DNA from: Candidatus Bathyarchaeota archaeon
GTDB lineage: Archaea; Thermoproteota; Bathyarchaeia; RBG-16-48-13; JAGTRE01
Assembly (NCBI GenBank): GCA_018396415.1
Contig: JAGTRE010000002.1
Location: 96,824 to 160,823, forward strand
DNA length: 64,000 nucleotides
Reading direction: 5' to 3'
The translations under genes were made by a program, and so were the position numbers. The stretch's first letter is position 1; each line of letters begins with the position of its first letter. Below are positions 8,365-56,886 of the stretch, piece after piece. The notes beneath the pieces were generated by a model that saw only the letters and a list, made by a program, of their open reading frames with translations, was not told where the DNA came from and searched no databases.

Positions 8365-8487
8365 GCCGGGGTGGCGGAGTCCTCCAAGGGAGGACGGAAT
8401 GGACGAACGCGCCGGCCTTGAGAAACTAGCCAAGAAAGCCGGTGACCCTTTTGGGTCTCAAGGGTTCAAATCCCTTCCCCGGCGCCA
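8365..8487 (+). tRNA. tRNA-Ser (anticodon TGA) with an extra hairpin insertion in the D-loop and an about 14-nt intron in the anticodon loop
   Basis: Acceptor GCCGGGG/CCCCGGC, discriminator G, encoded CCA; T-arm AAGGG-TTCAAAT-CCCTT; long variable arm GACCC-TTTT-GGGTC (class II). Anticodon stem CCGGC/GCCGG flanks CTTGA...AA with 14 extra nt. D-region contains hairpin GTCCTCC-AAG-GGAGGAC about 20 nt beyond a normal D-loop. 123 nt total. Confidence 0.55.
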
Positions 8488-8712
8488 ATCATCGATGGGC
8501 TCTAACACCCTTAAAGAAGGATCTGGGGGCTGGGTAACCTCTTAATGAGCTTGATCCCCTGACCAGATTTCTTTTCCATGCAACCGGCTGATTCTTACAA
8601 CGCAATTTATATCTTATACACTCGTAGCGTGTTCTGAGATCTAAATCGGCTTAGCCTTCTCTTGTGAAGAAATATCTATCTACAAAGCTAAATTAACTCA
8701 TATTAAGTTAAC

Positions 8713-9540
8713 TTGTTAAGCAACGGTGAGAAGACTATGACCTTTGAAAAACCTGTTTGTTTTTTAAAAAATAATCAAAAGCTATTTGGAATACTCCATC
8801 TGCCGAAACAGAGGGGAAAGTTTCCTGCAATAGTGTTTTGCCACGGTTTTATGGGCCATAAACTTGGTGCAAGACACGGCGGAAGGCTATTTGTTAAAGC
8901 TGGAAGGACATTAGCGCAGGAAGGATTCGCAGTTTTAAGGTTTGATTTTAGAGGCTCAGGTGACAGCGACGGTGAGTTCGAAGATATGACCACCTCCGGG
9001 GAAATTAATGACTTAAAAGCAGCGTTGAAATTTCTTGAAACACTCAATCAGATCGACAAGAAGAGGATTGGTGTTGTAGGGCTGAGTTTAGGTGGGACTG
9101 TGGCTATTTGTACAGCTGCAGAAGACCGTCGTATTGGGGCTGTTGCTTCTTGGAGTGGGGTTGCATTTCTTGAAGATGTTTTCCGTGTAAAAATTATTGG
9201 TGAAGAAAATTATCATAGGCTGATGAAAAATGGTTTTTACGACATCATTAGAGACGGGCAGCCAGTAGGATATAGGGTTAGTAAAGAATTTTTCATCGAT
9301 CTCAAGAATCATAATCCAATAGAAGCTGTCGCTAAGATATCGCCCCGACCGGTCTTGATTGTTCATGGAACAAAGGATGTGGTTGTCCCCCCTGAAAATG
9401 CTGAAGCCCTCTATAGGAGCGCGGGAAATCCAAAAGAGCTTAGATGGATTGAAGGCGCAGACCACGTATTTATGGAACGGGACAAAACCGCTGAGGTAAT
9501 AGCTGTGACTACAAAATGGTTTAAAGAAGTTTTCTTTTGA
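8713..9540 (+). CDS. Alpha/beta hydrolase (dienelactone hydrolase / S9-like)
   Basis: HGFMGH oxyanion region, GLSLGG nucleophile elbow, C-terminal GADHVF; 275 aa. Confidence 0.6.
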   Translation: MLSNGEKTMTFEKPVCFLKNNQKLFGILHLPKQRGKFPAIVFCHGFMGHKLGARHGGRLFVKAGRTLAQEGFAVLRFDFRGSGDSDGEFEDMTTSGEINDLKAALKFLETLNQIDKKRIGVVGLSLGGTVAICTAAEDRRIGAVASWSGVAFLEDVFRVKIIGEENYHRLMKNGFYDIIRDGQPVGYRVSKEFFIDLKNHNPIEAVAKISPRPVLIVHGTKDVVVPPENAEALYRSAGNPKELRWIEGADHVFMERDKTAEVIAVTTKWFKEVFF

Positions 9541-9619
9541 CGATTCCGAGAAGCTTCGTATAGGTAACCTATTTTTATATTCAGAAATCTATGTAGTTAC
9601 ATCTCCGCTGGGAAATCCT

Positions 9620-10855
9620 ATGAGTGAACGAACCCCTTGGAAAACTGAAAAATGGTGGGTTAGTCACTTCAATTATCTCGATGAAATTCGGAGAGAGTTT
9701 ACCCCTCCTGAGAAAGTGATTGTTCACGACATTACACTTAGAGATGGGGAACAGCAGCCTGCGCTTGTTTTTCGCAAGGAAGAGAAACTTAGAATCGCAC
9801 GGAAACTTGACGAAACCGGGATCCATCGAATTGAGGCGGGAATGCCTACGGTATCGGCTGAGGATAAGGAGGCTGTCAAAGCGATAGCTCATGATGGATT
9901 AAGTGCGAAAGTCTTCAGTTTTGCACGATGTATGAAAAAAGATGTCGATGAAGCATTGGCCTGCGATGTCGATGGTGTAGTTATGGAAGTTCCTGCTAGT
10001 GAGCATATTATTCCCAACGCTTATGGTTGGCCTATAGAAAAGGCGATTGAATTGTCAGTTGAGTCAACGACGTATGCTGGAGAACATGGGTTGTATGTCA
10101 CCTTCTTTACGATCGATCAAACGAGGGCAGATCTTGCATGGTGTCTCAAACTTTTGGAGAGGGTTGCTACTGAGGGACACATGGATTCTCTTGCCGTAGT
10201 AGACACATTCGGCGTTTGCGGTCCTCAAGCAATAGCATACTTAGTTAAGAAAATTAAGGAAAGCATAAAAAAACCTGTAGAGATACACTGCCACAACGAT
10301 TTTGGATTGGGGACAGCGAACACTATTAGCGCTGTGTTGGCTGGCGCCGAAGTTATTCATACAACAGTAAATGCAATTGGTGAGCGAAGTGGCAATGCAG
10401 CGATAGAGGAAGTTGCATTGGCATTGCTTACTATGTATGGGATTGATCTCGGCATCAAGTACGATAAACTTTTGGAGTTATCCGAATTAGTTCAGCAGCT
10501 GTCTGGAGTCGCTATGCCTCCAAATAAACCTGTTGTCGGGGCAAATGCGTTTAAAATCGAGTCAGGTATTATTGCAGCTTGGTGGGCGAGAGTCAGTGAT
10601 CTGGGAATACCACTTGAAATACTTCCTTTCAGATGGGATCTCATTGGTCAAAGAAAGCCGCAATTGCTCCTAGGGAAAAAGAGTGGAAAAGACTCTGTGA
10701 CATTTAAGGCTAGGGAATTAGGATTATCTATCCCAGATGAATTAGTTGATAAGATTCTGCTCGAAATAAAAACTGCAGCCATAGCGAAGAAGGCGCCGCT
10801 GGCGGATGAAGAGTTTAGGACAATAGTAGACCGAATTAAAACAACTAAAGAATAA
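9620..10855 (+). CDS. 2-isopropylmalate / homocitrate / citramalate synthase family enzyme (DRE-TIM metallolyase), no regulatory domain
   Basis: DITLRDGEQ motif, HCHNDFGLGTAN metal-binding block; 411 aa. Confidence 0.7.
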   Translation: MSERTPWKTEKWWVSHFNYLDEIRREFTPPEKVIVHDITLRDGEQQPALVFRKEEKLRIARKLDETGIHRIEAGMPTVSAEDKEAVKAIAHDGLSAKVFSFARCMKKDVDEALACDVDGVVMEVPASEHIIPNAYGWPIEKAIELSVESTTYAGEHGLYVTFFTIDQTRADLAWCLKLLERVATEGHMDSLAVVDTFGVCGPQAIAYLVKKIKESIKKPVEIHCHNDFGLGTANTISAVLAGAEVIHTTVNAIGERSGNAAIEEVALALLTMYGIDLGIKYDKLLELSELVQQLSGVAMPPNKPVVGANAFKIESGIIAAWWARVSDLGIPLEILPFRWDLIGQRKPQLLLGKKSGKDSVTFKARELGLSIPDELVDKILLEIKTAAIAKKAPLADEEFRTIVDRIKTTKE

Positions 10856-10874
10856 TGCTGTCTAAAAATTCTAT

Positions 10875-11222
10875 TTATTGAAGGGAAATTTCTATAAATA
10901 CTTCATCTGGCACTTTAATCCGCATGATTCGGCGCATAACTCTCTCCTCTGCTGAAATATCGATAAGTCGCTTGTGAATGCGGAGTTGATATTTGTCCCA
11001 TGTGTGAGTCCCTTCTCCACAGGGAGACTTGCGAACCGGAACCATTAAGCGTTTAGTAGGCAACGGAATTGGACCGGCCATTTTAACGCCAGTCCGCTCA
11101 GCGATACTCTTAAGCTCATTACATATTTCATCGAGTTTTTTTGGATCCGTACTGGTGAGGCGAATTCGGGCTTTGTTAACCATTGGTATTTTCCACGCTT
11201 TGAAGTATGTGTAGGGTTGCAT
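10875..11222 (-). CDS. rps10: 30S ribosomal protein S10 (uS10)
   Basis: [40 protein letters not shown] is the canonical uS10 core; true start probably the internal Met at about 11183. Confidence 0.85.
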
Positions 11223-11377
11223 ATGGATTATTTATGGGTTTTGGCAAGGCTTATGCTATAATTTCGCCTAAAATATTTAGGAATTTATCTCTAGGTAGGT
11301 TGAAGTTACGAAAAAATAGATGCGAGGCTTAGGGCTAGAAGTTTATAAGAAGCCAGCAAAAAAGTAAAAGGAAGCAC

Positions 11378-12709
11378 TTAAGCCTTTTGAGTGATTTCCT
11401 TGACTACCCCTGCAGCGATTGTTGTTCCCATGTCGCGAATTGCAAACCTGCCCATCGGTGGTATTTCAGAGTAACATTCGATTGCAACTGGTCGTAATGG
11501 TTGAAAACGAACCAAGGCTCCATCCCCAGTCTTAAGAAATGCCGGCTTCTCCTCGAGTACTTGCCCAGTTCTTGCGTCGAGTTTCTTGATTAATTCAGCA
11601 AACTTACAGGCAACCGTGGCAGTATGAGCATGAAGGACCGGTGTGTAACCAGCTGCGATGGCAGTTGGATGATAAATGACAATGATTTGTCCAATAAATT
11701 CTTTAGCAACCGTTGGAGGCTTATCGACTGGACCGCCAACATCTCCCCGATGAATGTCGGTCTTAGATATCCCTTTAACGCTGAATCCGATGTTGTCTCC
11801 TGGGACAGCTTGTGGGATCCGAACGTGATGAGTTTCGATCGACCGCACTTCCCCTTTGACATTGGCAGGCATGAAAACTATGGTATCCCCCTCTCTGAGA
11901 ATGCCAGTTTCGACTCGCCCCACTGGAACCGTTCCTACCCCTGTAATTGTGTAGACATCCTGAATTGGAAGTCTTAACGGTTTGTCGATTGGTTTGGGTG
12001 GAACGGTTAACACGTCGAATGATTCTATTAGCGTCGCCCCTTTGTACCACGGCATGTTTGTGCTTGGCTTCACCAAGTTGTCTCCAGTCCAACCAGAAAT
12101 CGGAACAAATGGGATTTTAGAAACATTATAACCGACAGTCTTGAGGAGGGATTCGACACCACTTTTAACTTCTTCAAATCTGTCTTTGCTCCACTTTACT
12201 GTGGGGTCATCCATTTTGGTTATACCGACAACTAGTTGGTCGACGCCTAGGGTTTTCGCGAGAAAAACGTGCTCCCGCGTCTGTCCGCCCGGTCCAATCC
12301 CTGCCTCATAGTCGCCTTTCTTCGCTGAAACTATTAAAAGAGCAGCATCAGCTTGGCTAGTTCCAGTAATCATGTTCTTAACGAAGTCCCGGTGGCCAGG
12401 TGCATCAATGATGGTAAAGAAGTACTTCTCAGTTTCGAATTTCCAAAAAGATAGATCAATTGTCATTCCGCGTTCTCGTTCTTCCTTTAACTTATCTAGA
12501 ACCCAAGCGAATTTGACTTCATCTAGCCTCATGCCGTACTTTTGGGCTTCAGTTGCATGCTCTTGAATGGCGCGTTCATCGATGTAGCCTGACAACAACA
12601 GCAGATGTCCTACACAGGTTGATTTACCGTGATCGACATGTCCGATTACCACTAGGTTTAGGTGGGGTTTCTCCGAAACACCGCCCTTTGCAGGCCCAAA
12701 TGATGACAA
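11378..12709 (-). CDS. tuf: Translation elongation factor 1-alpha (aEF-1a/EF-Tu)
   Basis: GHVDHGKST G1 motif, DAPGHRDF, NKMD; 443 aa. Confidence 0.95.
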   Translation of the reverse strand: MSSFGPAKGGVSEKPHLNLVVIGHVDHGKSTCVGHLLLLSGYIDERAIQEHATEAQKYGMRLDEVKFAWVLDKLKEERERGMTIDLSFWKFETEKYFFTIIDAPGHRDFVKNMITGTSQADAALLIVSAKKGDYEAGIGPGGQTREHVFLAKTLGVDQLVVGITKMDDPTVKWSKDRFEEVKSGVESLLKTVGYNVSKIPFVPISGWTGDNLVKPSTNMPWYKGATLIESFDVLTVPPKPIDKPLRLPIQDVYTITGVGTVPVGRVETGILREGDTIVFMPANVKGEVRSIETHHVRIPQAVPGDNIGFSVKGISKTDIHRGDVGGPVDKPPTVAKEFIGQIIVIYHPTAIAAGYTPVLHAHTATVACKFAELIKKLDARTGQVLEEKPAFLKTGDGALVRFQPLRPVAIECYSEIPPMGRFAIRDMGTTIAAGVVKEITQKA

Positions 12710-12945
12710 TTTCGTTTTTAACCTCCTTTTTGACTACATCAAATTGTGGTGGAAAGACCGTAGGGTTTATCGAATCACTCGGTTATTTTAAGCTTTTTCT
12801 TATTTACTAGGACTTTATAAGTAAGACTGGAATTGATTGGTTTGAAAGTAAACGATGCTGTTTGCACGCATTGCTAAGTCTTTAATGTATATACTTGAAG
12901 GCGAGCTTTATAGAGGATAATCATCTTAGTGCAGGTCGTTCTTCC

Positions 12946-14091: not shown

Positions 14092-14093
14092 TT

Positions 14094-22574: not shown

Positions 22575-23198
22575 TTGAAAATAATAGGTATAAGTGGTAG
22601 TGCCTCAAAATCACCCTATAGAACAACGGAATTCCTCGTAAAGAAAGCCTTGGAAAGTGCTAGCGAGTGTGGTGCTGAAACTGAGTTTATCCGCCTATCT
22701 GATCTAAATATTCAACCTTGCGACGGCTGTAATATATGCTTAAAACAGAAAATATGCACCATAAAGGATGACATGCAAATGTTGTATGAAAAACTAATCA
22801 AATGCGATGGAATAATATTAGGCTCACCCTCTTATTTCGGCACGGTCAGCGGCCTAGTCAAGAATTTTATGGATCGTACACGCCCTCTGCGCGGTGGACT
22901 TGAATTGTCACTTGCAAATAAGGTCGGAGGCGCTATAGCAGTAGCAGGCTGGAGACATGGAGGACAAGAATTCGTTGCAGACACTATAATTAGGTTCTTC
23001 CTTACACATGGAATGATTGTAGTGGGAAACCTAACTGACACGGGTTACCTACAAAATACAGCTTACGGGGGTCTTGGAACATTGCAAGGAAAGCGGGCTA
23101 AGGAGTGGGACAAAATAACTGAAGATGAAGTTGGAATTAATAGTGCAATAGCTCTAGGGAAAAAAATAGTGGAAGTATTGAGGCTGATGCATAAGTAA
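22575..23198 (+). CDS. Iron-sulfur flavoprotein-like NADPH-dependent FMN reductase
   Basis: Flavodoxin-like N-terminus KIIGISGS and compact CDGCNICLKQKIC (Cx2Cx2Cx5C) Isf-type cluster motif; 207 aa. Confidence 0.55.
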   Translation: MKIIGISGSASKSPYRTTEFLVKKALESASECGAETEFIRLSDLNIQPCDGCNICLKQKICTIKDDMQMLYEKLIKCDGIILGSPSYFGTVSGLVKNFMDRTRPLRGGLELSLANKVGGAIAVAGWRHGGQEFVADTIIRFFLTHGMIVVGNLTDTGYLQNTAYGGLGTLQGKRAKEWDKITEDEVGINSAIALGKKIVEVLRLMHK

Positions 23199-36090: not shown

Positions 36091-36235
36091 TGGCGGGCCC
36101 GGCGGGAATTGAACCCGCGACCCATCCCCAGGGAGAGGTGAATCATCATCCCTTCCGGGTGTCCTCCGAGCTCGGATAAAAGCCTCACCGAGAGATTTTC
36201 TCCCCGGTGCTCTATCCTAGCTGAGCTACGGGCCC
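36091..36235 (-). tRNA. Intron-containing tRNA (about 70-nt intervening sequence); anticodon not resolved
   Basis: Minus-strand RNA: GGGCCCG-TA-GCTC-AGCTAGGATA-GAGC ... GCGGG-TTCAATT-CCCGC-CGGGCCC-G-CCA. Acceptor, D-arm and T-arm are canonical and CCA is encoded. The anticodon region is interrupted by about 70 nt containing hairpins; exon junctions could not be fixed by eye. Confidence 0.6.
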
Positions 36236-36270: not shown

Positions 36271-36462
36271 TAACCCTGGTGGGGGGTATGGCGCCCCTCG
36301 GCAAGGGTGAGATTTCCTCTGACCCTTTTGGCCGGGATTTGAATTCCCGAGCTAACGCTTGTTGCTAGCGTTAAGCTTCCCGGGTCGTGCGGGCGAGTCG
36401 GCATCCAAGGAATTACCCCCCGGATCCAGCCGCACATACTAGACCGGACTATACTACCAGGG
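36271..36462 (-). ncRNA. tRNA-like locus (about 190 nt) that would require 2-3 introns: tRNA 5' acceptor+D-arm, split T-arm, distant 3' acceptor strand
   Basis: Minus-strand RNA begins GCCCTGG-TA-GTAT-AGTCCGGTCTAGT (Asp/Glu/Gly-type D-arm). Contains TGCGG...CCGCA (possible anticodon stem) and CCGGG...[35 nt]...TTCAAAT-CCCGG (T-arm only if an intron sits at 53/54). It ends ...CCAGGGT, complementary to the 5' acceptor with a G1-U72 wobble. Long-range G6TA/TAC6 pairing also present. Confidence 0.25.
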
Positions 36463-36581
36463 CAATGACTCCTAAAAGCCCTATCAATCGTTTTTATTTA
36501 AAACTTTCTTAAACTAATTTGACGCGCCCCTTATAGGACTGAATATAATAAATTTAGGAGACATGTTTCGGATCTTAGCGA

Positions 36582-37470: not shown

Positions 37471-37563
37471 GGGCCCGTGGCCTAGTTGGATAAGGCGTCG
37501 GCCTTCGGACATTTCGATTTGGAAGAGAGCCGGAGATCGAGGGTTCAAATCCCTCCGGGCCCG
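37471..37563 (+). tRNA. tRNA-Arg (anticodon TCG) with a 19-nt intron at the canonical 37/38 position
   Basis: GGGCCCG-TG-GCC-TAGTTGGATAA-GGC-G-TCGGC-CTTCGG[ACATTTCGATTTGGAAGAG]A-GCCGG-AGATC-GAGGG-TTCAAAT-CCCTC-CGGGCCC-G; CCA not encoded. Confidence 0.75.
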
Positions 37564-37947
37564 CTATAGTTAGAGACGCAAATATTAAGCGATGGTACAA
37601 AACCTTGCCCTAACAGCCCCGTTAGGGTTGAGGTATTTTCTTTCTACCTCATTCACGTAATCGATGAAGTTGTAACCTCTCTTTTCTCTATACTTTAAAT
37701 TTAGTTTGGGGTAGTTTTTAGAATTTATCTCAGGAATATAAAACGCTCTAGAGCTGGGGCTAAGGCATTGTTCGTTCTTTCCATTCTATTCCAAACGGTC
37801 ATCTAAAACCTCTAATCTCCGCGCCCATTCTTTGAGAAACGCGCTTGCTTGGGATATTCCTTTATTCAAATGCCTGCGACGCGTTAATTCATAAGAATTT
37901 ATCCGGGCAAAATTTATATCGTGGGCTTTTTGTCTTCTCCATTGGTT

Positions 37948-38147
37948 CCCGCGGTAGCTCAGCTTGGTAGAGCTTCCGAGTCCGCCTCCCCTAAAGGACG
38001 GACGGAGATGCTGTAGACGTGTGCCACGAGCACGCGTCATTTAGCCTACTAAGCAGACACCGGAGTGTCGCCGGAGAATAGTGGAAAATTCCCCTATTCG
38101 GCGAATTCAAAGCCGAGAAACCTCGGTGAAATTCCGGCCCGCGGGAC
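37948..38147 (+). ncRNA. Second tRNA-like locus (about 200 nt): canonical 5' acceptor+D-arm and a matching 3' acceptor strand with encoded CCA, separated by about 150 nt
   Basis: CCCGCGG-TA-GCTC-AGCTTGGTA-GAGC at 37948 onward; ...CCGCGGG-A-CCA at 38138-38147. Interior has a stem-loop CGGC-GAATTCAAA-GCCG resembling the T-arm-like element of locus 36271-36462, and CGGAG repeats. Could be a multi-intron tRNA or another ncRNA. Confidence 0.25.
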
Positions 38148-38233
38148 CAAACTCCTTTAACATTAGTTGGTTGGATTTTTTAGAGCTAAAATTACTTAGT
38201 TGATACGAAATAACGAAGATTTTAGGCTCAAAG

Positions 38234-40242: not shown

Positions 40243-40779
40243 GTGTTAACGTTGGCTCTACAAATCGAGGCGATTTATGTTGAAGGAAAACTAATCGTTT
40301 CCTCATCGGAAGCAGTTTCATCTCTAGAGCAAAGAGGCTATGGCACAAAGGAAGAAAAAACGGGTTTAATTCTTTCACCCACTGAAGCCCTCTACTTACT
40401 TGGTGACAAGAAACTCCGTGTAGTTGACAAAGATAGTGGCATTGAACAAGATTTTCCAACGCTCCTTGGAAAAATACGTACAATTGATCCTGAAATTTGG
40501 ATAAGATATCTGATTTACAGAGATCTTAGAGATCGAGGTTACGTTGTCCGCGAAGGCTTTGGTCTCGGAGTTGACTTCCGAGTATACGAACGGGGGCAAT
40601 ACGGGGAAGAAGCAGCCAAATACATTGTATTTGGGATTTCAGAAGGGACTCCAATTCCTGTTGGGAAAATTGTTGAACTCCTAAGATACGTCCAAAGTTT
40701 GAAACGTGAACTCGTACTCGCAGTTATCGACCGACGGGGAGAGATTGTGTATTACTCTGTCTCACAATTGACATTCTAG
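40243..40779 (+). CDS. endA: tRNA-splicing endonuclease EndA (short, about 178-aa form)
   Basis: Catalytic-domain block RDLRDRGYVVREGFGLGVDFRVYERG with conserved Tyr/His/Lys context. Confidence 0.85.
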   Translation: MLTLALQIEAIYVEGKLIVSSSEAVSSLEQRGYGTKEEKTGLILSPTEALYLLGDKKLRVVDKDSGIEQDFPTLLGKIRTIDPEIWIRYLIYRDLRDRGYVVREGFGLGVDFRVYERGQYGEEAAKYIVFGISEGTPIPVGKIVELLRYVQSLKRELVLAVIDRRGEIVYYSVSQLTF

Positions 40780-40806: not shown

Positions 40807-42117
40807 TTATTTGCCGCAACTTAACATTTGTATCAACTCATCAACAGAAATCTCTCTTTCTTCTCGAGTTTCCATCACTTTCAATCTAAACTTCCCTTTT
40901 TGAATTTCTTCTGGACCAATGATAAGCACATATGGAATTCCTTTAGAATCAGCGTATTCGAGTTGCTTTGTCAGCCGCCTTCCCATAAGGTCGACCTCAG
41001 TTGAAATCCCAGCTTCCCTAGTTCGTCTGGCAATTGCCAAGGCATCCTTATGTAAACTTTCATCAACCGTGGAGATGAATAACTTCACCAAGGTCTTTGG
41101 CTGATTAAACATTCCCTCGTCTTCCATTATCTCAACAATCCGCTCAATACCAATTGATATTCCGGTCGCAGGCGAAGGCGCGCCACCATAAAGTGCGATC
41201 AAATTATCGTATCGCCCGCCCCCAGCAACGCTCCCTACATTTTTCTTGGCTTGAACATTAATTTCATATATGGGTCCAGTGTAGTAATCTAAACCCCGCA
41301 CTAAGCTAAAATCAACGATAAATTTACCTGCAATTGCATAGTCGGTAGCTTTTTCAAGTATTTCGTCAAGCTCACTCAATCCCTCTTCTGCAATTTTAAT
41401 TCCGCCCAAAAGTTTTCTTGCCTTTTCAGGGATTTCGTTAACACCCTTCAGTGAGACGTATTCCAGTAGCATTTCACTAGACTCCTCAGATATGCCACGC
41501 TTTAAAAGTTCCTTTTTAACTCCATCTAATCCTATTTTATCTAGTTTATCAAACGCACGAAATACACCAAATGCCTTGGACTCCGGGATGCCAGCTAATC
41601 GGACAAACCCGTCTAGAACTTTCCGATTGCTAAGCCTAAGCGTGAAATTCGTAAAACCTAAAGCCTTTAGGCAGTCTGCTGCCACAGCAAGTACCTCGAC
41701 ATCAGCGTCCATCTTACTACTGCCAACCACATCCGCGTCCGCTTGCCAAAACTCGCGAAAACGCCCGCTTTGAGGTTCCTCATAGCGCCAAACCCGCGAG
41801 ATACAATATCGCTTGAATGGTTTGGGAATTGCCGGATTGCTGGCCACTAACCGTGCCAGGGGAACCGTCAAATCAAATCTCAAGCCAAGCAACCGGCCAC
41901 CACGATCTTCGAATTTATAGATTTGTTCTCGGATTTCTTCACCGCACTTTGCAGTTAAAACATCCCACTGCTCAAAAGCTGGGGTTTCAATTTCGTCAAA
42001 ACCATAGTTCTCAAAAACCTTACGAATTTTCTCCATAACAAACCGACGCTTAATCATTTCTTTCGGCATAAAGTCTCGAGTTCCGCGAGGGCGTCCAATC
42101 TTTTTTCCTTTAAACAT
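40807..42117 (-). CDS. hisS: Histidyl-tRNA synthetase
   Basis: Class II motifs, HisRS N-terminus RGTRDFMP, C-terminal anticodon-binding domain; 436 aa. Confidence 0.9.
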   Translation of the reverse strand: MFKGKKIGRPRGTRDFMPKEMIKRRFVMEKIRKVFENYGFDEIETPAFEQWDVLTAKCGEEIREQIYKFEDRGGRLLGLRFDLTVPLARLVASNPAIPKPFKRYCISRVWRYEEPQSGRFREFWQADADVVGSSKMDADVEVLAVAADCLKALGFTNFTLRLSNRKVLDGFVRLAGIPESKAFGVFRAFDKLDKIGLDGVKKELLKRGISEESSEMLLEYVSLKGVNEIPEKARKLLGGIKIAEEGLSELDEILEKATDYAIAGKFIVDFSLVRGLDYYTGPIYEINVQAKKNVGSVAGGGRYDNLIALYGGAPSPATGISIGIERIVEIMEDEGMFNQPKTLVKLFISTVDESLHKDALAIARRTREAGISTEVDLMGRRLTKQLEYADSKGIPYVLIIGPEEIQKGKFRLKVMETREEREISVDELIQMLSCGK

Positions 42118-42189: not shown

Positions 42190-42299
42190 TGGCGGGCCTG
42201 ACGGGATTTGAACCCGCGACCTACAGCTTTCCCCAGAGGCTATAGGAGGCTCGGCTGATCTGGTCATCTGCCGCGCTGTCCAAACTGCGCCACAGGCCC
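42190..42299 (-). tRNA. Intron-containing tRNA (about 32-34 nt extra); anticodon not resolved, intron probably non-canonical
   Basis: Minus-strand RNA GGGCCTG-TG-GCGC-AGTTTGGACA-GCGC-G-...-AGGTC-GCGGG-TTCAAAT-CCCGT-CAGGCCC-G-CCA. Intervening region contains hairpin GGCAGAT-GACCAG-ATCAGCC; no U33-containing loop is found at a canonical position. Confidence 0.55.
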
Positions 42300-42630
42300 C
42301 AGTTTAATCGATAACTTAGATATTCCTTAAACTTTCTGTTTGACAAACTTATAGTTGAATAAACTTGGCACGTCTATAGGCTCATTAGCCCGTTTTAGCC
42401 GACCTTTCGAACTTAGACTCTGTAATTGCCTCCTCCTGCCAACGCGAACGCCACATTTTCAAATTCAGCTGTTCACATACCCTTCCGCCATGAGCTCCCA
42501 GAATCGTATCATTCATTAACAGATATTGTCATAAATGCACTGAGCAATAGTAAACCTTCGATAAGGCATTGGATATTAAGGTCCATTAAGTAAAGACTTA
42601 AGTTTAACAAAAAAATTCGATAAACTAAGG

Positions 42631-42764
42631 CGGGGGTACCCGAGCCAGGTCTATGTCGCGGTCCAGAAGCCGGACGGCTTGAGGGGGCGGTAGCTAGACA
42701 CTGCCCAAACTTAAGATCCGCTGGCGAAGGCCTTCGTGGGTTCGAATCCCACCCCCCGCACCAC
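42631..42764 (+). tRNA. tRNA-Leu (anticodon TAA) with a 47-nt intron inside the 5' strand of the anticodon stem (near position 30/31, non-canonical)
   Basis: GCGGGGG...CCCCCGC-A-CCA acceptor; T-arm GTGGG-TTCGAAT-CCCAC; long variable arm. Exon 1 ends ...GTCGCGG (42662); exon 2 resumes A-CTTAAGA-TCCGC (42710 onward), giving stem GCGGA/TCCGC and loop CTTAAGA. Intron TCCAGAAGCC...TGCCCAA spans 42663-42709. Confidence 0.8.
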
Positions 42765-45291: not shown

Positions 45292-45339
45292 CACAGCAAA
45301 AGCATTCGCAAGAAAAAGTTTCCGTACCTATTGAATGGA

Positions 45340-45482
45340 GGCCGCGGTCGGGATTTGAACCCGAGCGACCGTCCCATTCCTTTAATCAATTAATGGAATG
45401 GGTGTCCGGCTCCATTGACCAGGATAGAGGCTACGCATTAATCCTTCAGGCCGGTAGGCTAACCAGACTACCTCACCGCGGC
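45340..45482 (-). tRNA. tRNA with two introns (about 32 nt in the anticodon loop, about 36 nt hairpin in the variable region); anticodon reads GAA (Phe-like) but discriminator is C
   Basis: Minus-strand RNA GCCGCGG-TG-AGGT-AGTCTGGTTAG-CCTA-CCGGC-CTGAAG[32 nt]A-GCCGG-[CCCATTCC-ATTAATTGATTAAA-GGAATGGG hairpin]-TCGGG-TTCAAAT-CCCGA-CCGCGGC-C; 143 nt. Confidence 0.5.
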
Positions 45483-45584
45483 CAACTTTTGCCATCCTTA
45501 CAACCATCACTTTTTCATTAAGTTTTCTTTAAAGGTTGTTGGACAACTAACCTTAGGGAATTTGGAAGATTGAAGTATGAGCCC

Positions 45585-49665: not shown

Positions 49666-50070
49666 TTATGAGGACTTAGGCTCATTAAGCCCTATACAAT
49701 TTTCTCCCTTACCTGGACAGCCAATGATGCAATAGAATTCACATGGCTCATCGCCTACCGCTTTGAATCCATGTTCCTCATTAGCTGCAAAGTAGAGCAC
49801 ATCTTCAGGCTTAGCCTCTACAGATTTTCCTTCAGCGGTTGCAACTAGCCTACCCTTTACAATTGCTATTTCTTGCTCCCAAGGATGTTTATGAGGTGCT
49901 AAGTAGCCTCCAGGTTCGATTACGAAGTAACGTAATGCAAAGTGATGCATGTATTCTTCTCCTCCAGTTCTTTTCTCTGAAATCCATCTTATTGTCACGC
50001 CCTTGGCATTTGAACCGTAAGCCTCTTTCACATCGTATCCCTTGATCTCTTTGATGTTCTTAACAATCAT
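49666..50070 (-). CDS. Cupin-domain protein
   Basis: HKHPWEQEIAIVKG...ANEEHGFKAV cupin motifs; 134 aa. Confidence 0.7.
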   Translation of the reverse strand: MIVKNIKEIKGYDVKEAYGSNAKGVTIRWISEKRTGGEEYMHHFALRYFVIEPGGYLAPHKHPWEQEIAIVKGRLVATAEGKSVEAKPEDVLYFAANEEHGFKAVGDEPCEFYCIIGCPGKGENCIGLNEPKSS

Positions 50071-50451
50071 ACAATCAACTCTCTTTGGTTAAATATGAAA
50101 GGTAGTAATCCTAGGGAGTATTAATCTTATCGATATTTATACTGTTATGACGGCTTTTACATTTATCGAAAATGTAACAGTGGGGATATATGCTCCTCTT
50201 CTTCATGCGCAAGAGCCTTGGAAGCCCGTAAATCTTACAAATAACCTACGACCGCTACTTAAACTTCTTTTGAAAAGTTCATCAAGTTGAATATTCGATA
50301 AGCCAGTTACATCTCTGATAATTACTCCCTAGCAATAGCATTTGCTACTCCGAGAGCTAGTGTCCTGAAGAAAACCATCTTCATCGAATTTTAAAATCAT
50401 AAACATTTATACTATATTTATTCCTCCAAATGACGAATAAAATCACAAAGG

Positions 50452-50545
50452 TGGTGGACCGGGCGGGATTCGAACCCGCGACCCCTTGGTCTTTTGAGAA
50501 AGCCCATGCAAACCAAGTGCTCATACCGAGCTGAGCTACCGGCCC
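50452..50545 (-). tRNA. tRNA-Ala (anticodon TGC) with a 16-nt intron at/near 37/38; G3-U70 present
   Basis: Minus-strand RNA GGGCCGG-TA-GCTC-AGCTCGGTAT-GAGC-A-CTTGG-TTTGCA[TGGGCTTTCTCAAAAG]A-CCAAG-GGGTC-GCGGG-TTCGAAT-CCCGC-CCGGTCC-A-CCA. Confidence 0.85.
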
Positions 50546-50651
50546 AGTATGAATAGCCAAATGAATATGTTGATTTTAAGAGTTTCCATGAAAAGATTTG
50601 ACTTCAACTAAGCGTTGGAGATGTTAATCTTGATCTAATCGGTGGTATGCC

Positions 50652-51374
50652 ATGATTAAAGCTGTTCTCTTTGATTTTTGGGATACCTTGGTTCCATCTG
50701 CCGATGAGTTTGCCTATGTAAGAGAGCAGGCGAAAACGCTTTCCAAACAACTTGCCAAATTTGGTTATCCGGTAAAGCTGGGTGTAATGATACGCGCCTT
50801 CTTAGAGAATCATCAAGCATGCGAGGAGGAACGCGACCGTACAGAGATTGAAGTACCAGTTAACATTGAAGTAGCTCGACTTATCGAGTTGTTGGGTTTC
50901 CCAGTTTCCCCTGAACTAATAAGAAAACTAACTGACGCATTCCAACGAGTTTTTATTAAATACATTCCCTCACCGAGGCCTGATGCTATACAAGCTCTTC
51001 GAATTTTAAAATCAAGTGGATTTAAACTCGGTATAGTTTCTAACACTTCGTGTGGGAAATGTCTTCGTTATCATTTAGAAAAACACTTATTGATGCAATG
51101 TTTAAATGCCGCGGTATTTTCGGATGAGGTTGGATACCGAAAACCAAACCAGAAGATATTCAGAGATGCTCTCACCCAATTAGGAGTTACGGCTGAGGAA
51201 GCAATTCACGTAGGCGACAATCTCTATGCAGATATTCAGGGCGCCAAACAATTAGGTATGAAAACCATTTTATATTCTGAAAAAATATTAGCTAAAGCCC
51301 AACCGAAACCGGACATTGTAATCACCACCTTCAAGCAATTACCTGAATACGTGTATAAGTTGTCCGTTGGTTAA
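50652..51374 (+). CDS. HAD-superfamily hydrolase
   Basis: N-terminal LFDFWDTL (DxD motif I), C-terminal GDNLYADIQGAKQLG motif IV; 240 aa. Confidence 0.7.
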   Translation: MIKAVLFDFWDTLVPSADEFAYVREQAKTLSKQLAKFGYPVKLGVMIRAFLENHQACEEERDRTEIEVPVNIEVARLIELLGFPVSPELIRKLTDAFQRVFIKYIPSPRPDAIQALRILKSSGFKLGIVSNTSCGKCLRYHLEKHLLMQCLNAAVFSDEVGYRKPNQKIFRDALTQLGVTAEEAIHVGDNLYADIQGAKQLGMKTILYSEKILAKAQPKPDIVITTFKQLPEYVYKLSVG

Positions 51375-51398
51375 TCTCAAGCCGAAATTAACGGAGGT

Positions 51399-52370: not shown

Positions 52371-52474
52371 TCTTCATCATCTATATAGAAGTTCAAATAA
52401 TTTAAAGATAAGAATAATTGTTTGAGTATTTAATCTGATAACTTTTAATGTATAAACAGACCTGAACTTAAAAG

Positions 52475-53410
52475 CTAAGTTAGCAACCTCGCTCCTTGAA
52501 AATCTATCTCAGAGATTACAATTTTTTCCTCAGGAAGATGCCGTTTAAAAGCTTCATATACTGCTTTCACGGTTTCTTGTCCAGTTATTGCATGAGCCGA
52601 TTCGCCAAGCATATTTTGAGTGGCACCGATAGCCCCTGCGCTTTCTGCGTCTTCAATTAGTCGCCTGACACGCCTAGACATCAATCCCAAATCATATGCA
52701 AACTGTTTACATGCTTTAATGAAAGTTGTTAGGTTGGGATTTGATTGTATTTTCTTTAATGTTCTGCGACCTAGTTTATTAACTAAAGTCCTCTCCTTAG
52801 GTGAAAAAAGTACATAACGTTTATTTATTGGTCCAAAACTCCCGGCAATAACTTTTAAATTCGGCTGGATGGGAATGCGATCAACTAGACCTATTCCAGC
52901 GGCACCACTTCTAACCACTAAGACTAACCCACCAACAAGCAATCCCTCTACTGTACCGAGCCCTGTGTGACATATAACATCTGCCACATGGGCCATTCTA
53001 CCAATTTGACCGTATGTTAAGTTTAATCCAAGTTCACGAGAAAGTGCCAGTCCGGTCGAAAGTGCGCCTGCCGCGCTTGTTCCAAACCCTGCCCCGATAG
53101 GCACCTCAATGAAATGCTTAACTGTCACATGATAGGTGCCTTTAACTTGATCGAGTAGCATGTTTACCATAGCTTTAGTTGTTTTTGCCCGAGGCGCAAA
53201 TTTTCCATTTATGTAGATTTCGACTTTACGTTTCTTTGATTTCCGGGCTATCACTTCAGTTGTGGTTCCTTTCGAGAGGGCGAAACCCCCGCCTCGAGCA
53301 CCTATCCTTTCTGGATCCCTAATCGGGGTACCATTTTCTTCATGGTCGCATATCTCAAAGAAGCTGGAAATTCCACTTGGTGAAAACGCTCGAGTCAAGC
53401 ATGCTACCAT
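52475..53410 (-). CDS. GHMP-family kinase (archaeal pantoate kinase / shikimate kinase-like)
   Basis: GHMP ATP motif PIGAGFGTSAAGA; 311 aa. Confidence 0.55.
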   Translation of the reverse strand: MVACLTRAFSPSGISSFFEICDHEENGTPIRDPERIGARGGGFALSKGTTTEVIARKSKKRKVEIYINGKFAPRAKTTKAMVNMLLDQVKGTYHVTVKHFIEVPIGAGFGTSAAGALSTGLALSRELGLNLTYGQIGRMAHVADVICHTGLGTVEGLLVGGLVLVVRSGAAGIGLVDRIPIQPNLKVIAGSFGPINKRYVLFSPKERTLVNKLGRRTLKKIQSNPNLTTFIKACKQFAYDLGLMSRRVRRLIEDAESAGAIGATQNMLGESAHAITGQETVKAVYEAFKRHLPEEKIVISEIDFQGARLLT

Positions 53411-53413
53411 CTA

Positions 53414-54217
53414 TTACTTTACTTTAGGTCTAAAGCTTGGAAAAGCCAGAAAACATGCCTTTAGAATTGGCGGCCCCGCAAAAATTAGGAATGGAATTTC
53501 GGTGCAGAAGGTCCAAGTAAACCAGATGACGCTTGCATATAATGGTAGTTGAAAGCCTCCTGAAGGTAGTAAGAAGAATTGGCTAAATAGCCAAACCCCC
53601 ACACCGATGATTGCACTACCGACACCAAGTCCTACTAGAGATCCTATCCCATAACTAAGCCAATCAGGCCAAGCGAGACCAATAGCTAAGGCAACTCCAA
53701 TGCTTGCTAAACAAGTCGCCGTAAATAGCACGAATGCAATAAAATCCAAACTCCCAGTCCAAAATAACCATGTTGAAAAAATGACAATCAAACAACCTAT
53801 TAGACAACCTAAGGCTACAGTAAGAAAACCAATTTTCTTTCTGGCAATGTAGCCTACTAAATAGAAGCCAATGAAGTTTGATGGAATCCCAACAGTTATG
53901 CTTAACAGGGCATTGCCGTGAATTAACATATCGCTAATAAAGATGCCGATAGCGGCTCCAGCTCCGCCGACAAATGGTCCAAATAATGTAGCAAATACTG
54001 CTGGGATTATCACAGCGGGCCAGAATCTAACAACCCCGATAACAGGAGTGAAGATTCCCAAGTAAGTTAAGTAACCGAAGGCAGCATATAGTGCAGCGTT
54101 TAGACTTATAGTGATCGCTTCTAGTGGCTTCATGGCATTAATGAATTGTGGTATTCGTAAAAATAAATTGAATCTATATATTTTATAAAATCTATAAAGA
54201 ACTATATTTTGATTCAA
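53414..54217 (-). CDS. Polytopic membrane protein resembling an ECF-transporter substrate-specific (S) component
   Basis: Six to seven hydrophobic helices, about 240 aa from a likely internal start; immediately downstream of the GHMP kinase. Confidence 0.35.
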   Translation of the reverse strand: MNQNIVLYRFYKIYRFNLFLRIPQFINAMKPLEAITISLNAALYAAFGYLTYLGIFTPVIGVVRFWPAVIIPAVFATLFGPFVGGAGAAIGIFISDMLIHGNALLSITVGIPSNFIGFYLVGYIARKKIGFLTVALGCLIGCLIVIFSTWLFWTGSLDFIAFVLFTATCLASIGVALAIGLAWPDWLSYGIGSLVGLGVGSAIIGVGVWLFSQFFLLPSGGFQLPLYASVIWFTWTFCTEIPFLIFAGPPILKACFLAFPSFRPKVK

Positions 54218-54399
54218 ACTTGAAAGTCCACTTTTCTTAGAATCTTCACTTGACTGATTATGAAAATCCGTCAGGTTTCGCTAAACTTTACGCTGAAGAC
54301 CTACACTGTTTTTTCAACCATGAAAAAGATTAACAATGATTTAAGGAGTATACCCATAGTCTAAAATCGAAGTTCCGATCGCAGGGCGTTTTAACAAAA

Positions 54400-55275
54400 A
54401 TGAGAGTACACAAACGAGCTAAACATATTATAGAGGTTGCTAAGGCGTGCGTAGTTATTGAAGATGGTATCATAAAGAAGATTGGCAAGCCGCGTACAAA
54501 ATATTGCCCTTTATACGAGGACCTTTACCACGCCAAACGTATCACAAAGCAGCTTATTAAATCCATACTTGAGTATAAAATAGAGAACCTTGGAATGTAT
54601 ACTGAACATAGGAAGTTAGATCACGATGATATTGTACCATTTGGAACTTCGGAAATCGTAAAGACAGCTATGAAAAAGGGTCTTTTAGATTCCGCTGTAT
54701 TAGTTTGTGAGGGTGCTGGCACAGTTATAACTAATGACCCAAACTTGGTTCAAGGGATCGGTGCTCGCCTTACTGGCATTCTTTATACCACACCTATACT
54801 GGGCATAATTGAAAAATTGAAAAGCAGAGGGGCTGTTGTTTTAGATCCCGCTAAAGCCACAATAGATCAAATCAAAGGCGTAACTAAGGCTGCTGAACTT
54901 GGATTCAAAAAAGTTGCTGTAATGCTTGCTGGACATGACGCTCGGAAAGCAGCTGAACTTCGGAGGCTGGAAAAAAAGTTAGGAATTGAGGTTTGGATAT
55001 TCGTTCTTCATACTACTGGAATTAAAGTAAGAGAGGCTAAACGCCTCGTAAAATCTGCGGACGTGGTTTGGGGATGTGCATCAAAGGTGGTTCGCGAAGT
55101 TATTGGTCCTAAGGCATTAGTTCAAATTGGAACCGCAATACCTGTGTTTGCCGTTTCAGAGAGAGGAAAAATGGCTATTTTGGCAAGAGCCGAGATGATC
55201 AAAGAGCCTTTAGCCTTGTTGAGGGTCAAACCACCAGTGTTAGCCGCTGAAAGACAACCTAAACCCTTAACTTAA
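54400..55275 (+). CDS. Conserved hypothetical protein (291 aa), upstream of the nifB-like remnant
   Basis: ORF only; Gly-rich VLVCEGAGTVITNDP segment; no confident family. Confidence 0.35.
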   Translation: MRVHKRAKHIIEVAKACVVIEDGIIKKIGKPRTKYCPLYEDLYHAKRITKQLIKSILEYKIENLGMYTEHRKLDHDDIVPFGTSEIVKTAMKKGLLDSAVLVCEGAGTVITNDPNLVQGIGARLTGILYTTPILGIIEKLKSRGAVVLDPAKATIDQIKGVTKAAELGFKKVAVMLAGHDARKAAELRRLEKKLGIEVWIFVLHTTGIKVREAKRLVKSADVVWGCASKVVREVIGPKALVQIGTAIPVFAVSERGKMAILARAEMIKEPLALLRVKPPVLAAERQPKPLT

Positions 55276-55290
55276 AATAGGAGGGCTTCC

Positions 55291-56069
55291 TTGCGGAGCT
55301 TCAATTATTTTTCTGATGAATATAATCATGTAACAAAAGTGCATCCTTGCTTTAGCCACGCATGTCATGCTAAGTACGCCCGAATACATATTCCCGTTGC
55401 ACCAAGGTGTAATATCCAATGTAACTATTGTGAAAGAGGCCTAAATACCTACGTACAGAAGCCTGGATTCGCCTCTAAAATTCTAACTCCCTTTGATGCG
55501 CTTAAAGCCGTTGAAAGAGCAGTAGAAGATAAAGACAAATACGAGTTGTCAGTAGTGGGAGTTGCGGGTCCAGGAGATGCGCTAGCCAACGAAGAAACGA
55601 TTGCGGAGTTAAAGCTATTACGGTTACGGTAAATGCGGTAGACCCGATTATCGCGTCACGGATCTACGAGTACATAATTTTTAATGGTGAAAAACGAGCT
55701 GGAATCGATGCTGCTCAAATTCTTATTTCAAATCAGCTTAAAGGGATAGAATTGTCATCAAAGTTTGGACTTTGTGTGAAAGTTAACACGGTTCTGATAC
55801 CGGATGTGAATAATAGGCATGTGGTAAAAGTTGCTGAAACAGTTGCCATGCATGGGGCTTTTATCATGAATGTTATCCCGCTGATACCTGGATATAAGTT
55901 TAGGCAACTAAAACCCCCTACTCATGAGGAGATAAAAAATACTCGTAAATTATGTAGTAAATACATAATCCAATTTAACGATTGTAAACTTTGTAGAGCT
56001 GATGCTTACGGAATACCTGGTTTAGAGACAAAATTTAGTAAAGACCAACTGAAGTGTTGCAGCATATAA
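55291..56069 (+). pseudogene. nifB-like radical SAM gene disrupted by an internal deletion of about 100 nt plus frameshift
   Basis: Frame 1 (55291-55632) encodes the NifB N-terminus (HPCFSHACHAKYARIHIPVAPRCNIQCNYC...GPGDALAN) and stops at 55632. Frame 0 is open from 55533 and from 55617 encodes ITVTVNAVDP...GLCVKVNTVLIPDVNN...IPLIPG (NifB middle and C-terminal blocks) to 56069. The PDLKLCLSTNG segment expected between them is absent. Confidence 0.5.
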
Positions 56070-56071
56070 AA

Positions 56072-56407
56072 CTAAGAACCCTTCTTTAAGACTTTTGGCC
56101 ATCGAATCATTGTCCATTTATTTTTCTTTGCAAAGTATCGGATTACGTCGTTGAAGGCACGACTATGGCTTTCCAAGTAAAACACATGAGCACAAGCTTC
56201 TTCCAAGGTCATATCATTTCCAAAGGACTTTATCCAAAGATTTGCGCGAAGCAACATACTTTTATACGCTTTAGAATGCTCTTCGCAAAACTCCTTTCCT
56301 GGAGCGCATTGGCGAGTACAAATTGGACATTTCATTGCTGATACAGCCATTTTTAACCTTAACAATTCAATTGACATTAAGAACCTGAAGACATTTACGG
56401 TTTTCAA
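56072..56407 (-). CDS. Hypothetical small protein with CPICTRQC...C...H zinc-finger-like motif
   Basis: 111 aa ORF; Cys/His pattern only. Confidence 0.3.
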   Translation of the reverse strand: MKTVNVFRFLMSIELLRLKMAVSAMKCPICTRQCAPGKEFCEEHSKAYKSMLLRANLWIKSFGNDMTLEEACAHVFYLESHSRAFNDVIRYFAKKNKWTMIRWPKVLKKGS

Positions 56408-56744
56408 GACGGGTATACGAATATTCCCGATGTCATAATTTGCATATCACTATACATTGGGTGCCCGCGAAGTGATTTAGGGCTTATAAGAAACAAAAAG
56501 TTTGACAACAATTCCATTCTGCTAAAGATGTGGCAATTACCTGAAAACCTAGATTTCCTAATAGGAAAAATATAACTGAACAGCTGATGCACTTAGACGG
56601 TCTAGGGCATTAATTAAAAGCCAGACGAAAAGGACTTGTTACTTAGGCAAACTCAATATCAATAAGTACTTCTCAGTTATGCCAAAAAGGTTAGGAAAAT
56701 GCTTAATAGGTTCAATTTTTGCTTTAAAACTCGGATATCGTATT

Positions 56745-56886
56745 AGCGGGGTGGGGTAGCAAGAGAGGACAATGAAGTCCCTCTTGCCGAACCAGGTTTA
56801 ATGAGTACTTGTAGTGAACAAGCCTCGAATTCCCCGCAGGGCTCATAACCCTGAGATCGGTGGTTCAAATCCACCCCCCGCTACCA
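56745..56886 (+). tRNA. Initiator tRNA-Met (anticodon CAT) with about 62 nt of intervening sequence inside the D-loop (non-canonical)
   Basis: A1-U72 (AGCGGGG.../...CCCCGCT-A-CCA); anticodon arm CAGGG-CTCATAA-CCCTG with three G-C pairs (initiator hallmark); T-arm GGTGG-TTCAAAT-CCACC. D-stem GGGG/CCCC encloses TAGC + about 62 extra nt with hairpins AAGAGAGGA/TCCCTCTT and CTTG-TAGTGAA-CAAG. Confidence 0.7.

Follow-up and report, generated by a model that had tools for sequence, protein, structure and literature searches.

The tRNA genes of Thermoproteales and other TACK (Thaumarchaeota, Aigarchaeota, Crenarchaeota, Korarchaeota) archaea carry several introns, and this load co-evolves with tRNA-splicing endonucleases of the (alpha-beta)2/L1 type (PMC4033280, PMC5829648). 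The published limit is a maximum of three introns per gene (PMC4033280), also given as 'up to three' (PMC8450103). The published extreme is Pyrobaculum calidifontis with 71 introns in 46 genes (1.54 per gene), at a Thermoproteales mean of 0.84 per gene (PMC8450103). For Bathyarchaeia, we found nothing specific in the literature on tRNA introns or on the type of the endonuclease EndA. Here we analysed 64,000 nt of contig JAGTRE010000002.1 (positions 96,824 to 160,823; assembly GCA_018396415.1), hereafter the window, whose source is a hot-spring member of the class Bathyarchaeia. The window has a G+C content of ~43% and contains ten tRNA genes, all of which are interrupted, with 22 introns of 14-42 nt each (568 nt in total). 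It also contains an EndA-family gene (40252-40779), which most likely encodes a non-catalytic structural (beta-type) partner in a heteromeric endonuclease, as judged from its active-site and loop residues.

Standard tools recover these tRNA genes only in part. ARAGORN with default settings reports two odd 94-nt 'tRNAs' only, both mis-called because the intron is taken for an extra loop. With anticodon-loop introns allowed (-i) it reports seven genes, several of them with a wrong isotype. Rfam at gathering threshold yields five tRNA matches; all contain an insertion of 18-43 nt, and in one there is another of 32 nt. Calls for Pro, Tyr, Phe and Lys made by ARAGORN or Rfam alone were rejected as artefacts of introns left in. 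The genes were determined by a custom search which enumerates segments bounded by bulge-helix-bulge (BHB) motifs, removes up to three of them iteratively and scores the products with ARAGORN, followed by hand curation. In the geometry used, the nt 5 upstream of the 5' cut pairs with the nt 3 upstream of the 3' cut, and a central helix H of 4 bp is flanked by the helices h and h'. With at most three introns allowed, tRNA-Tyr and tRNA-Ser were poorly solved; hand curation added a fourth intron to the former and a relaxed D-loop intron to the latter.

After intron removal all ten genes fold into standard cloverleaves with ARAGORN scores of 116.7-125.7. Identity features are present in the spliced forms, namely long variable arms in Ser and Leu, G-1:C73 in His and G3:U70 in Ala, while the initiator tRNA-Met (iMet) shows A1:U72 and three G-C pairs in the anticodon stem. 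The same procedure returned no tRNA from 60 random genomic segments of 150 nt and none from 42 shuffles of the real genes (0/102 for the controls together). Moreover, eight of the nine GTTCRAWTC T-loop motifs in the 64 kb lie inside these tRNA genes; the remaining two genes, tRNA-Asp and tRNA-Tyr, are interrupted within the T-arm. No tool used found an uninterrupted tRNA in the window, and a permissive Rfam scan of the window gave no additional tRNA signal. Nor does the window hold a further G+C-rich non-coding island, as its other G+C-rich islands are all within long open reading frames (ORFs).

The sequence-only reading that preceded this analysis had described every tRNA gene of the window as interrupted. 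This is borne out, with ten of ten genes interrupted, and the range given for them (8365-56886) agrees exactly with the outermost coordinates of the curated genes. The count of eight genes was too low: tRNA-Asp (36289-36463) and tRNA-Tyr (37948-38149), with their interrupted T-arms, come on top. The isotypes Ser, Arg, Leu, Ala and iMet stand. The gene taken as Phe-like is tRNA-His(GUG) according to its strict BHB motif, and the anticodons left open at that time are now read as Lys(UUU), Asp(GUC), Tyr(GUA) and Arg(CCU). The statement that at least four are at non-canonical sites or in multiples understated the case, with 16 non-canonical introns and eight genes with several introns.

Six introns reside at the canonical site 37/38 and 16 elsewhere. 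Two or more introns are found in eight of ten genes, and four in tRNA-Tyr. Non-canonical sites in the D-arm are 15/16 or 16/17 (Ser, iMet), D-loop 20-22 (Leu) and 22/23 (iMet). The remaining ones are 30/31 (Lys, Tyr, Arg(CCU), Leu), 34/35 (Asp, His), 43-46 (Lys, His), 53/54 (Asp, Tyr), 59/60 (Tyr) and 68/69 (Asp). Site 30/31 in the anticodon stem is thus used in four unrelated tRNAs, and the sites 34/35, 53/54 and 15-17 twice each. A comparison of the 22 introns for sequence families, which would be a sign of transposition, revealed only matches of 7-8 nt, none of them significant. Given the shared site and the dissimilar introns, 30/31 looks like a preferred insertion site rather than the outcome of recent copying.

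The BHB motifs were assessed with the other introns of the same gene removed. All 22 introns show 3-nt bulges with a 4-bp helix or the relaxed HBh'/hBH form. A strict hBHBh' motif (H 4/4, h >= 2, h' >= 2) is present at 13 introns. The other nine are relaxed: three are short or long canonical introns with a loop in place of h', three have an outer helix h that is absent or consists of one pair (HBh'-like), and three have an imperfect central helix H, with the Ser D-loop intron being the worst (2/4). In several cases the motif depends on a neighbouring intron. The outer helix h grows from 0-3 pairs in the primary transcript to five pairs once the neighbouring intron is out, as seen in Lys, Arg(CCU) and introns 2 and 4 of Tyr. 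In Tyr, introns 1 and 3 must have left before these two outer helices can form.

The most fragmented gene is tRNA-Tyr(GUA) (37948-38149, plus strand), with a 202-nt gene being reduced to a 77-nt cloverleaf on removal of its four introns (spliced score 124.8). Introns 1 and 2 occupy 37979-38009 (31 nt, 30/31) and 38017-38058 (42 nt, 37/38), introns 3 and 4 are at 38075-38105 (31 nt, 53/54) and 38112-38132 (21 nt, T-loop 59/60). It is missed by Rfam and ARAGORN, as is tRNA-Asp(GUC) (36289-36463, minus strand; spliced 125.7). The latter contains three introns, all strict hBHBh': intron 1 lies inside the anticodon (36397-36426, 30 nt, 34/35), intron 2 at 36344-36378 (35 nt, 53/54) and intron 3 in the acceptor stem (36297-36328, 32 nt, 68/69). 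Three introns are also present in tRNA-Lys(UUU) (36091-36235, minus strand; Rfam 42.7 bits with two insertions; spliced 125.2), at 36184-36203 (20 nt, 30/31), 36161-36176 (16 nt, 37/38) and 36124-36154 (~31 nt, variable-loop region 43-46, boundaries uncertain by 2 nt). An AUGAUGA motif in Lys intron 3 (36124-36154), similar to a C box, was considered as part of a C/D-box guide RNA. This reading was rejected, with no D box present and the motif altered in the close relative L105, which is treated below.

Two introns each are found in five genes. In tRNA-His(GUG) (45336-45483, minus strand; spliced 116.7), one intron resides inside the anticodon (45415-45446, 32 nt, 34/35) and the other at 45/46 (45367-45403, 37 nt). 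ARAGORN -i gives Phe(GAA) for this gene if a canonical splice is assumed. We assign it to His because the strict BHB (H 4, h 2, h' 5) cuts at 34/35 and yields GUG, and because the 8-bp acceptor stem carries the encoded G-1 paired with C73. tRNA-Ser(UGA) (8365-8487, plus strand; spliced 124.7), which has a long variable arm, contains a hand-placed 20-nt D-loop intron (8380-8399, 15/16) with a relaxed BHB (H 2/4 pairs, h' 5 bp) and a 14-nt canonical intron (8423-8436, 37/38). tRNA-Arg(CCU) (42190-42299, minus strand; Rfam 47.5 bits with a 41-nt insertion; spliced 121.2) has introns at 42250-42267 (18 nt, 30/31) and 42229-42242 (14 nt, 37/38). Neither intron of tRNA-Leu(UAA) (42630-42763, plus strand) is canonical. 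The first is a D-loop intron with strict BHB (42653-42682, 30 nt, 20-22) for which an alternative register is 42654-42681, the second is at 42691-42708 (18 nt, 30/31), and the spliced scores of the two registers are 119.0 and 120.9. Initiator tRNA-Met(CAU) (56745-56886, plus strand; partial Rfam match of 29.2 bits; best spliced 123.7) has two D-arm introns, at 56761-56790 (30 nt, 16/17; alternative 56760-56791) and 56802-56832 (31 nt, 22/23).

The two genes with a single intron have it at the canonical site within a strict BHB. These are tRNA-Arg(UCG) (37471-37564, plus strand; intron 37509-37527, 19 nt; Rfam 59.7 bits with a 22-nt insertion; spliced 122.8) and tRNA-Ala(UGC) (50452-50545, minus strand; intron 50491-50506, 16 nt; Rfam 56.9 bits with an 18-nt insertion; spliced 119.3), the latter with G3:U70. 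The 3' CCA is encoded right after the discriminator base in eight of the ten tRNA genes (8484-8487, 36091-36094, 36289-36292, 38146-38149, 42190-42193, 42760-42763, 50452-50455 and 56883-56886), namely all except Arg(UCG) and His.

The EndA-family gene (40252-40779, plus strand) encodes 175 aa, or 178 aa from an alternative GTG start at 40243. PF01974 and PF02778 of Pfam match at 40243-40779, and the EndA fold was judged by sequence profiles. We aligned the protein with EndA of Methanocaldococcus jannaschii, the alpha subunit of Sulfolobus tokodaii, alpha and beta of Methanopyrus kandleri and 84 homologues from Bathyarchaeia. It contains no histidine at all, and the columns of the catalytic Tyr-His-Lys triad read Tyr, Ala and Arg. 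All 84 Bathyarchaeia homologues have Ala in the His column, and the Tyr of the triad is conserved. In the third column most of them have Lys, but the window protein and its 88% relative have Arg. The motif around this column is SLKREL (40690-40701) in the window protein and P0002, and SLKKEL, with the triad Lys, in the other 80 Bathyarchaeia homologues. The exchange of Lys for Arg is a further decay of the active site that is specific to the intron-rich sublineage.

Two loops were inspected in the same alignment. The Crenarchaea-specific L1 insert relative to M. jannaschii is absent in all 84 homologues; at this point S. tokodaii alpha reads YGKPIGISKPKS, and Bathyarchaeal alphas likewise have a 12-residue insert. 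The L10 loop and the following strand, RRGE(I/V)VYYS, are near-invariant in 84/84, with L10 of the window protein being DRRGE versus DADGD in M. jannaschii. In M. kandleri, Asp167 of beta is salt-bridged to Lys287 of alpha (PMC5829648), and of the RRGE residues only the final Glu falls in line with this Asp167. The best matches among solved structures are the M. kandleri beta-alpha fusion 5X89 (E = 2.6e-28) and the alpha4 enzyme of M. jannaschii (E = 1.3e-24, nearly gapless).

An exhaustive search of 1.84 billion representatives yielded 904 EndA-family proteins, of which the best 150 were classified. Within these 150, Tyr and His occur in all 59 C-terminal catalytic units of two-unit enzymes and Lys in 58, and their L10 is degenerate. 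Among the 60 N-terminal structural units, His is found in 3, Tyr in 32 and Lys in 43, and L10 is conserved (DEEGD). The 74 single-unit proteins nearest to the window protein have His in none, Tyr in 62 and Lys in 62 cases, and L10 is conserved as [DEN]R[RQ]GE; their His column is occupied by P, A, G, V, T, S, K, E and others. NCBIfam models point the same way: of a two-unit model with 350 positions, the window protein covers positions 7-163, and in NF006795 and NF006796 it likewise falls on the structural half. Matches to the 'subunit beta' models NF007085, NF007084 and NF007086 are weak (E = 3e-9 to 5e-5) and far below the cut-offs. A 185-aa single-unit homologue from metagenomes (P0205) combines an RRGE L10 with a retained His and a Glu in the Lys column, and may be an intermediate between catalytic and structural types.

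The sequence-only reading had described a short single-unit endA of catalytic-subunit size and suspected a structural partner elsewhere in the genome. The EndA domains, the short size and the expectation of a partner elsewhere hold, the roles do not: with no His and no L1 loop but a conserved L10 the window protein has the signature of a structural unit, and the absent subunit is the catalytic one. The reverse assignment, in which 40243-40779 would supply the catalytic alpha to a heteromeric EndA and a structural beta would be the subunit that is missing, is very improbable. The length of 175-178 aa and the two Pfam EndA domains do resemble catalytic subunits, the Tyr is conserved and M. jannaschii alpha4 is among the best structure matches (E = 1.3e-24). 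The protein also passes the cut-off of TIGR00324 'tRNA-intron lyase' (87.9 versus 59.6 bits), which is why it is publicly named tRNA-intron lyase in NCBI. However, it has Tyr only and hence neither the triad of a catalytic subunit nor the combination of triad and acidic L10 of the alpha4 type. All 59 catalytic units have His and a degenerate L10, while here the His column is Ala in 84/84, the Lys column is Arg, L1 is missing, L10 is conserved in the pattern of structural units and the alignment falls on the structural half of the two-unit models. Moreover a separate alpha family with the full triad exists in Bathyarchaeia. Those His-less homologues that carry a source name (P0001, P0052, P0090 and P0280; Bathyarchaeia and Helarchaeota) are likewise called 'tRNA-intron lyase' or 'tRNA-intron endonuclease', which is probably a systematic over-annotation of a non-catalytic subunit.

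Using phmmer --max with six EndA queries, we found no further EndA paralogue, either in the window or in 84 loci of ~20 kb, which cover 10 kb around this gene. A Korarchaeota/Sulfolobus profile retrieved other lineages among its top 120 matches (Sulfolobales, Asgard archaea, Methanomethylicia and others) and no Bathyarchaeal alpha. A second profile, built from BAT-clade-like matches, retrieved L1-type alphas named Candidatus Bathyarchaeota, Bathyarchaeia, Hecatellales or Hecatella, and 119 of its 120 alpha matches show the L1 motif. L1-type alphas with Tyr-His-Lys are encoded in metagenome-assembled genomes (MAGs) that bear the label Bathyarchaeota, Bathyarchaeia or Hecatellales (P0426, P0428, P0431, P0434, P0498, P0506 and P0447). 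The Bathyarchaeal alphas have the motifs GYYGKPLGIxKPK, FAVY, GPGIDHAPY and TVRKRF and a degenerate L10. One of them, P0506, aligns to positions 178-344 of the NCBIfam two-unit model and matches none of the beta models. It occurs in several MAGs of the hot-spring series of the window source (GCA_0388..., JAWC...) and in a Logan run, in the same numerical series. In Helarchaeota, both a member of the His-less family (P0280) and L1-type alphas (P0312, P0333, P0363) are present.

Since alphas exist in Bathyarchaeia and the window gene is His-less, the missing partner is the catalytic subunit. It is presumably encoded in the window's own genome and would assemble with the His-less subunit. As to the earlier view that such an intron load goes with a heteromeric or epsilon-type endonuclease of relaxed specificity, the load does imply a heteromeric enzyme of broad specificity. 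As an observation on the side, the alpha gene lies immediately downstream of a gene for ~217-233 aa on the same strand in nine of the ten lineages inspected (L085-L102, e.g. L093:2323-3567), among them Bathyarchaeia, a probable Nitrososphaeria contig and others. In several of these, Pfam identifies the upstream gene as PhoU_div (DUF47-like), and the P0506 gene is always directly downstream of a PhoU_div gene. The tight pairing of PhoU_div and alpha looks conserved.

Still less probable is that the His-less protein is the sole EndA of the lineage, i.e. a homotetramer employing a different general acid and thereby a new catalytic variant. Tyr and Lys/Arg are largely kept in the family, L10 and the C-terminal strand for self-assembly are conserved, no second paralogue lies within 10 kb in the 84 loci, and among the assemblies named none is known to have an alpha as well. 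However, the His-column residue varies freely, unlike a catalytic position, and the structural units of two-unit enzymes show the same pattern of Tyr and Lys without His. Canonical alphas are encoded in Bathyarchaeia-labelled MAGs, and Helarchaeota carry both types.

For the conservation of the tRNA genes the only informative relative is L105, a contig with an 88%-identical EndA homologue and six tRNA genes in the fetched region. All six shared tRNA genes are present in L105 and all 15 introns are kept. The exons differ at 6 of 474 positions (1.3%) and the introns at 65 of 390 (16.7%; Fisher p = 1e-17). tRNA-Lys retains its three introns with no exon difference. tRNA-Tyr has identical exons and four introns, with the helix of intron 3 changed from GAATAG/CTATTC to GAACGG/CCGTTC by compensatory exchanges. 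tRNA-Asp is conserved with the h' helix of intron 1 rebuilt by compensatory changes; tRNA-Arg(CCU) and tRNA-Leu are conserved as well, the latter with no exon differences. The exons are under strong constraint while the introns drift with pairing maintained. It is very improbable that we are dealing with pseudogenes in decay or with tRNA-like sequences arisen by chance, with intact functional copies elsewhere. Although half of the genes are missed by standard tools, all ten form perfect cloverleaves with ten different anticodons and the identity elements present, their exons are far less diverged than their introns, and the controls gave nothing. Moreover, a single gene per anticodon is usual in Archaea (PMC4307357).

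The load is not uniform across the class. In 80 more distant Bathyarchaeia loci a scan anchored on the T-arm gave 58 candidate tRNA genes, 26 of which have uninterrupted length. The tRNA-Lys(UUU) of L005 has no intron, compared to three in the window copy. The extreme load is therefore a trait of the window's sublineage and not of the whole class. This sublineage is delimited by the EndA-family protein: its best 80 relatives in contigs of one genome per species are 48-57% identical and nearly all titled Bathyarchaeia or Bathyarchaeota, hence the window represents a separate sublineage. The closest protein, P0001 ('tRNA-intron lyase [Candidatus Bathyarchaeota archaeon]'), is 99% identical, and its gene is located on the 492-kb contig JAWCKP010000001.1 of GCA_038851825.1. 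This contig shares with the window the order of genes for RNA polymerase subunits, a phosphoribosyltransferase, a histone, an IF-2B family protein, HycI, EndA, histidyl-tRNA synthetase and a radical SAM protein.

A heteromeric (alpha-beta)2 endonuclease, with the window gene as structural subunit, alpha encoded elsewhere and introns removed by protein-mediated splicing, is the reading we hold to be probable. In this model, the ten tRNA precursors with 1-4 short introns each would fold into local BHB motifs. The precursors would be cut by the (alpha-beta)2 endonuclease, to which an alpha from elsewhere in the genome would supply the Tyr-His-Lys triad and an L1 lysine that tolerates relaxed motifs (PMC5829648, PMC6379350). 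The 40252-40779 subunit would keep the complex assembled through its L10 loop and C-terminal strand. Where motifs overlap, removal of one intron would complete the next motif and thus lead to ordered splicing. Finally RtcB, helped by archease, would join the exons. Subunit assembly, splicing order and ligation by RtcB are steps that we infer. The archease, a cofactor of the RNA ligase RtcB which had been named before at 7833-8270 (minus strand), is confirmed by a full-length match to Pfam PF01951 (E = 1.1e-44).

Several observations weigh against this model. Of the window ORFs with 100 aa or more, 16 were submitted to Pfam, and none of these is an RtcB. Among the assemblies that could be named, those with an alpha and those with a His-less gene share no whole-genome shotgun prefix. 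Four intron boundaries are ambiguous by 1-2 nt, and the central helix of the tRNA-Ser D-loop intron is poor, with two of four pairs; splicing itself we infer from the gene sequences. In the His-less family, 62 of 74 members retain the Tyr and 62 of 74 the Lys, so that a residual RNA-binding or catalytic role may persist. Furthermore, L10 of the window protein carries two arginines, in contrast to the acidic L10 loops as described.

Some further features of the locus were noted. The histidyl-tRNA synthetase gene (40807-42117) adjoins the EndA-family gene, with tRNA-His (45336-45483) at a distance of 3 kb, and the adjacency of synthetase and EndA gene is kept in the close relatives L003, L004 and L105. 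Between the histone and IF-2B genes, L105 has a methyltransferase gene (L105:7261-8079) which the window lacks. Sub-threshold Rfam matches to eukaryotic C/D-box snoRNA families at 52443-52503, 22670-22761 and 50036-50119 (22-27 bits, E = 3-6) may be due to chance or represent archaeal C/D sRNAs.

With a four-intron tRNA gene and a load of 2.2 introns per gene, the known limits of tRNA gene disruption are pushed further, and outside Thermoproteales. The lineage moreover provides a second, independent case for testing the co-evolution of intron load and the EndA L1 loop. Recognising the structural subunit corrects a functional call and defines a family of full-length beta subunits with Tyr and Lys kept and an RRGE loop. 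We know of no structural study of such a full-length beta family. At least half of the genes escape standard tools and public annotation; therefore, MAG quality estimates from tRNA counts and inferences on codon usage are wrong for such lineages. We tentatively propose, as a conjecture that may well fail, that this lineage has the most fragmented tRNA gene set described (nearly all tRNA genes interrupted and more than two introns per gene genome-wide, with four-intron genes), and that it is spliced in an obligatory order of several steps by an (alpha-beta)2 enzyme with a full-length, His-less RRGE beta, an uncharacterised type common to Bathyarchaeia and Asgard archaea.

Compared to known systems, the tRNA genes of the window resemble those of Thermoproteales by short BHB-bounded introns at canonical and many non-canonical sites, several per gene, by an apparently ordered removal of neighbouring introns and by being missed by standard finders (PMC8450103, PMC4033280). 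They differ by their occurrence in Bathyarchaeia with 2.2 introns per gene in a ten-gene sample, versus 1.54 in the extreme and 0.84 in the mean, and by one gene with four introns versus the published maximum of three. Moreover the window introns are dissimilar to each other, whereas Thermoproteales introns form transposed families (PMC4033280).

Regarding the endonuclease, the crenarchaeal (alpha-beta)2 enzymes (Aeropyrum pernix 3P1Z/3AJV, Pyrobaculum aerophilum 2ZYZ, S. tokodaii 2CV8) combine an L1 alpha with a triad-less beta. Bathyarchaeal alphas share the GKPxGIxKPK loop with the crenarchaeal alphas, and the window protein matches crenarchaeal beta chains and beta models weakly. Unlike the crenarchaeal beta, it is full length with N- and C-terminal domains (175 aa, compared to 116 aa in P. 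aerophilum), keeps the Tyr, has RRGE as L10 and stays below the cut-offs of the three NCBIfam beta models. The (alpha-beta)2 EndA of M. kandleri (5X89), the best match in the PDB, has a beta which is likewise full-length, two-domain and triad-less. Its alpha however lacks the L1 loop and has a constrained specificity, while the Bathyarchaeal alpha has L1, and its beta, unlike the window protein, has also lost Tyr and Lys and carries an acidic L10 (DNDYD). The N-terminal structural unit of the alpha'2 type (Archaeoglobus fulgidus, Korarchaeota-like fusions) shows the same signature, with Tyr/Lys often kept, His lost and L10 conserved, but the window gene is free-standing and its L10 is R-R-G-E rather than D-E-E-G-D. 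Taken together, the system belongs to a known kind and is found in a new lineage, and its intron load in this sample of ten genes is a record.

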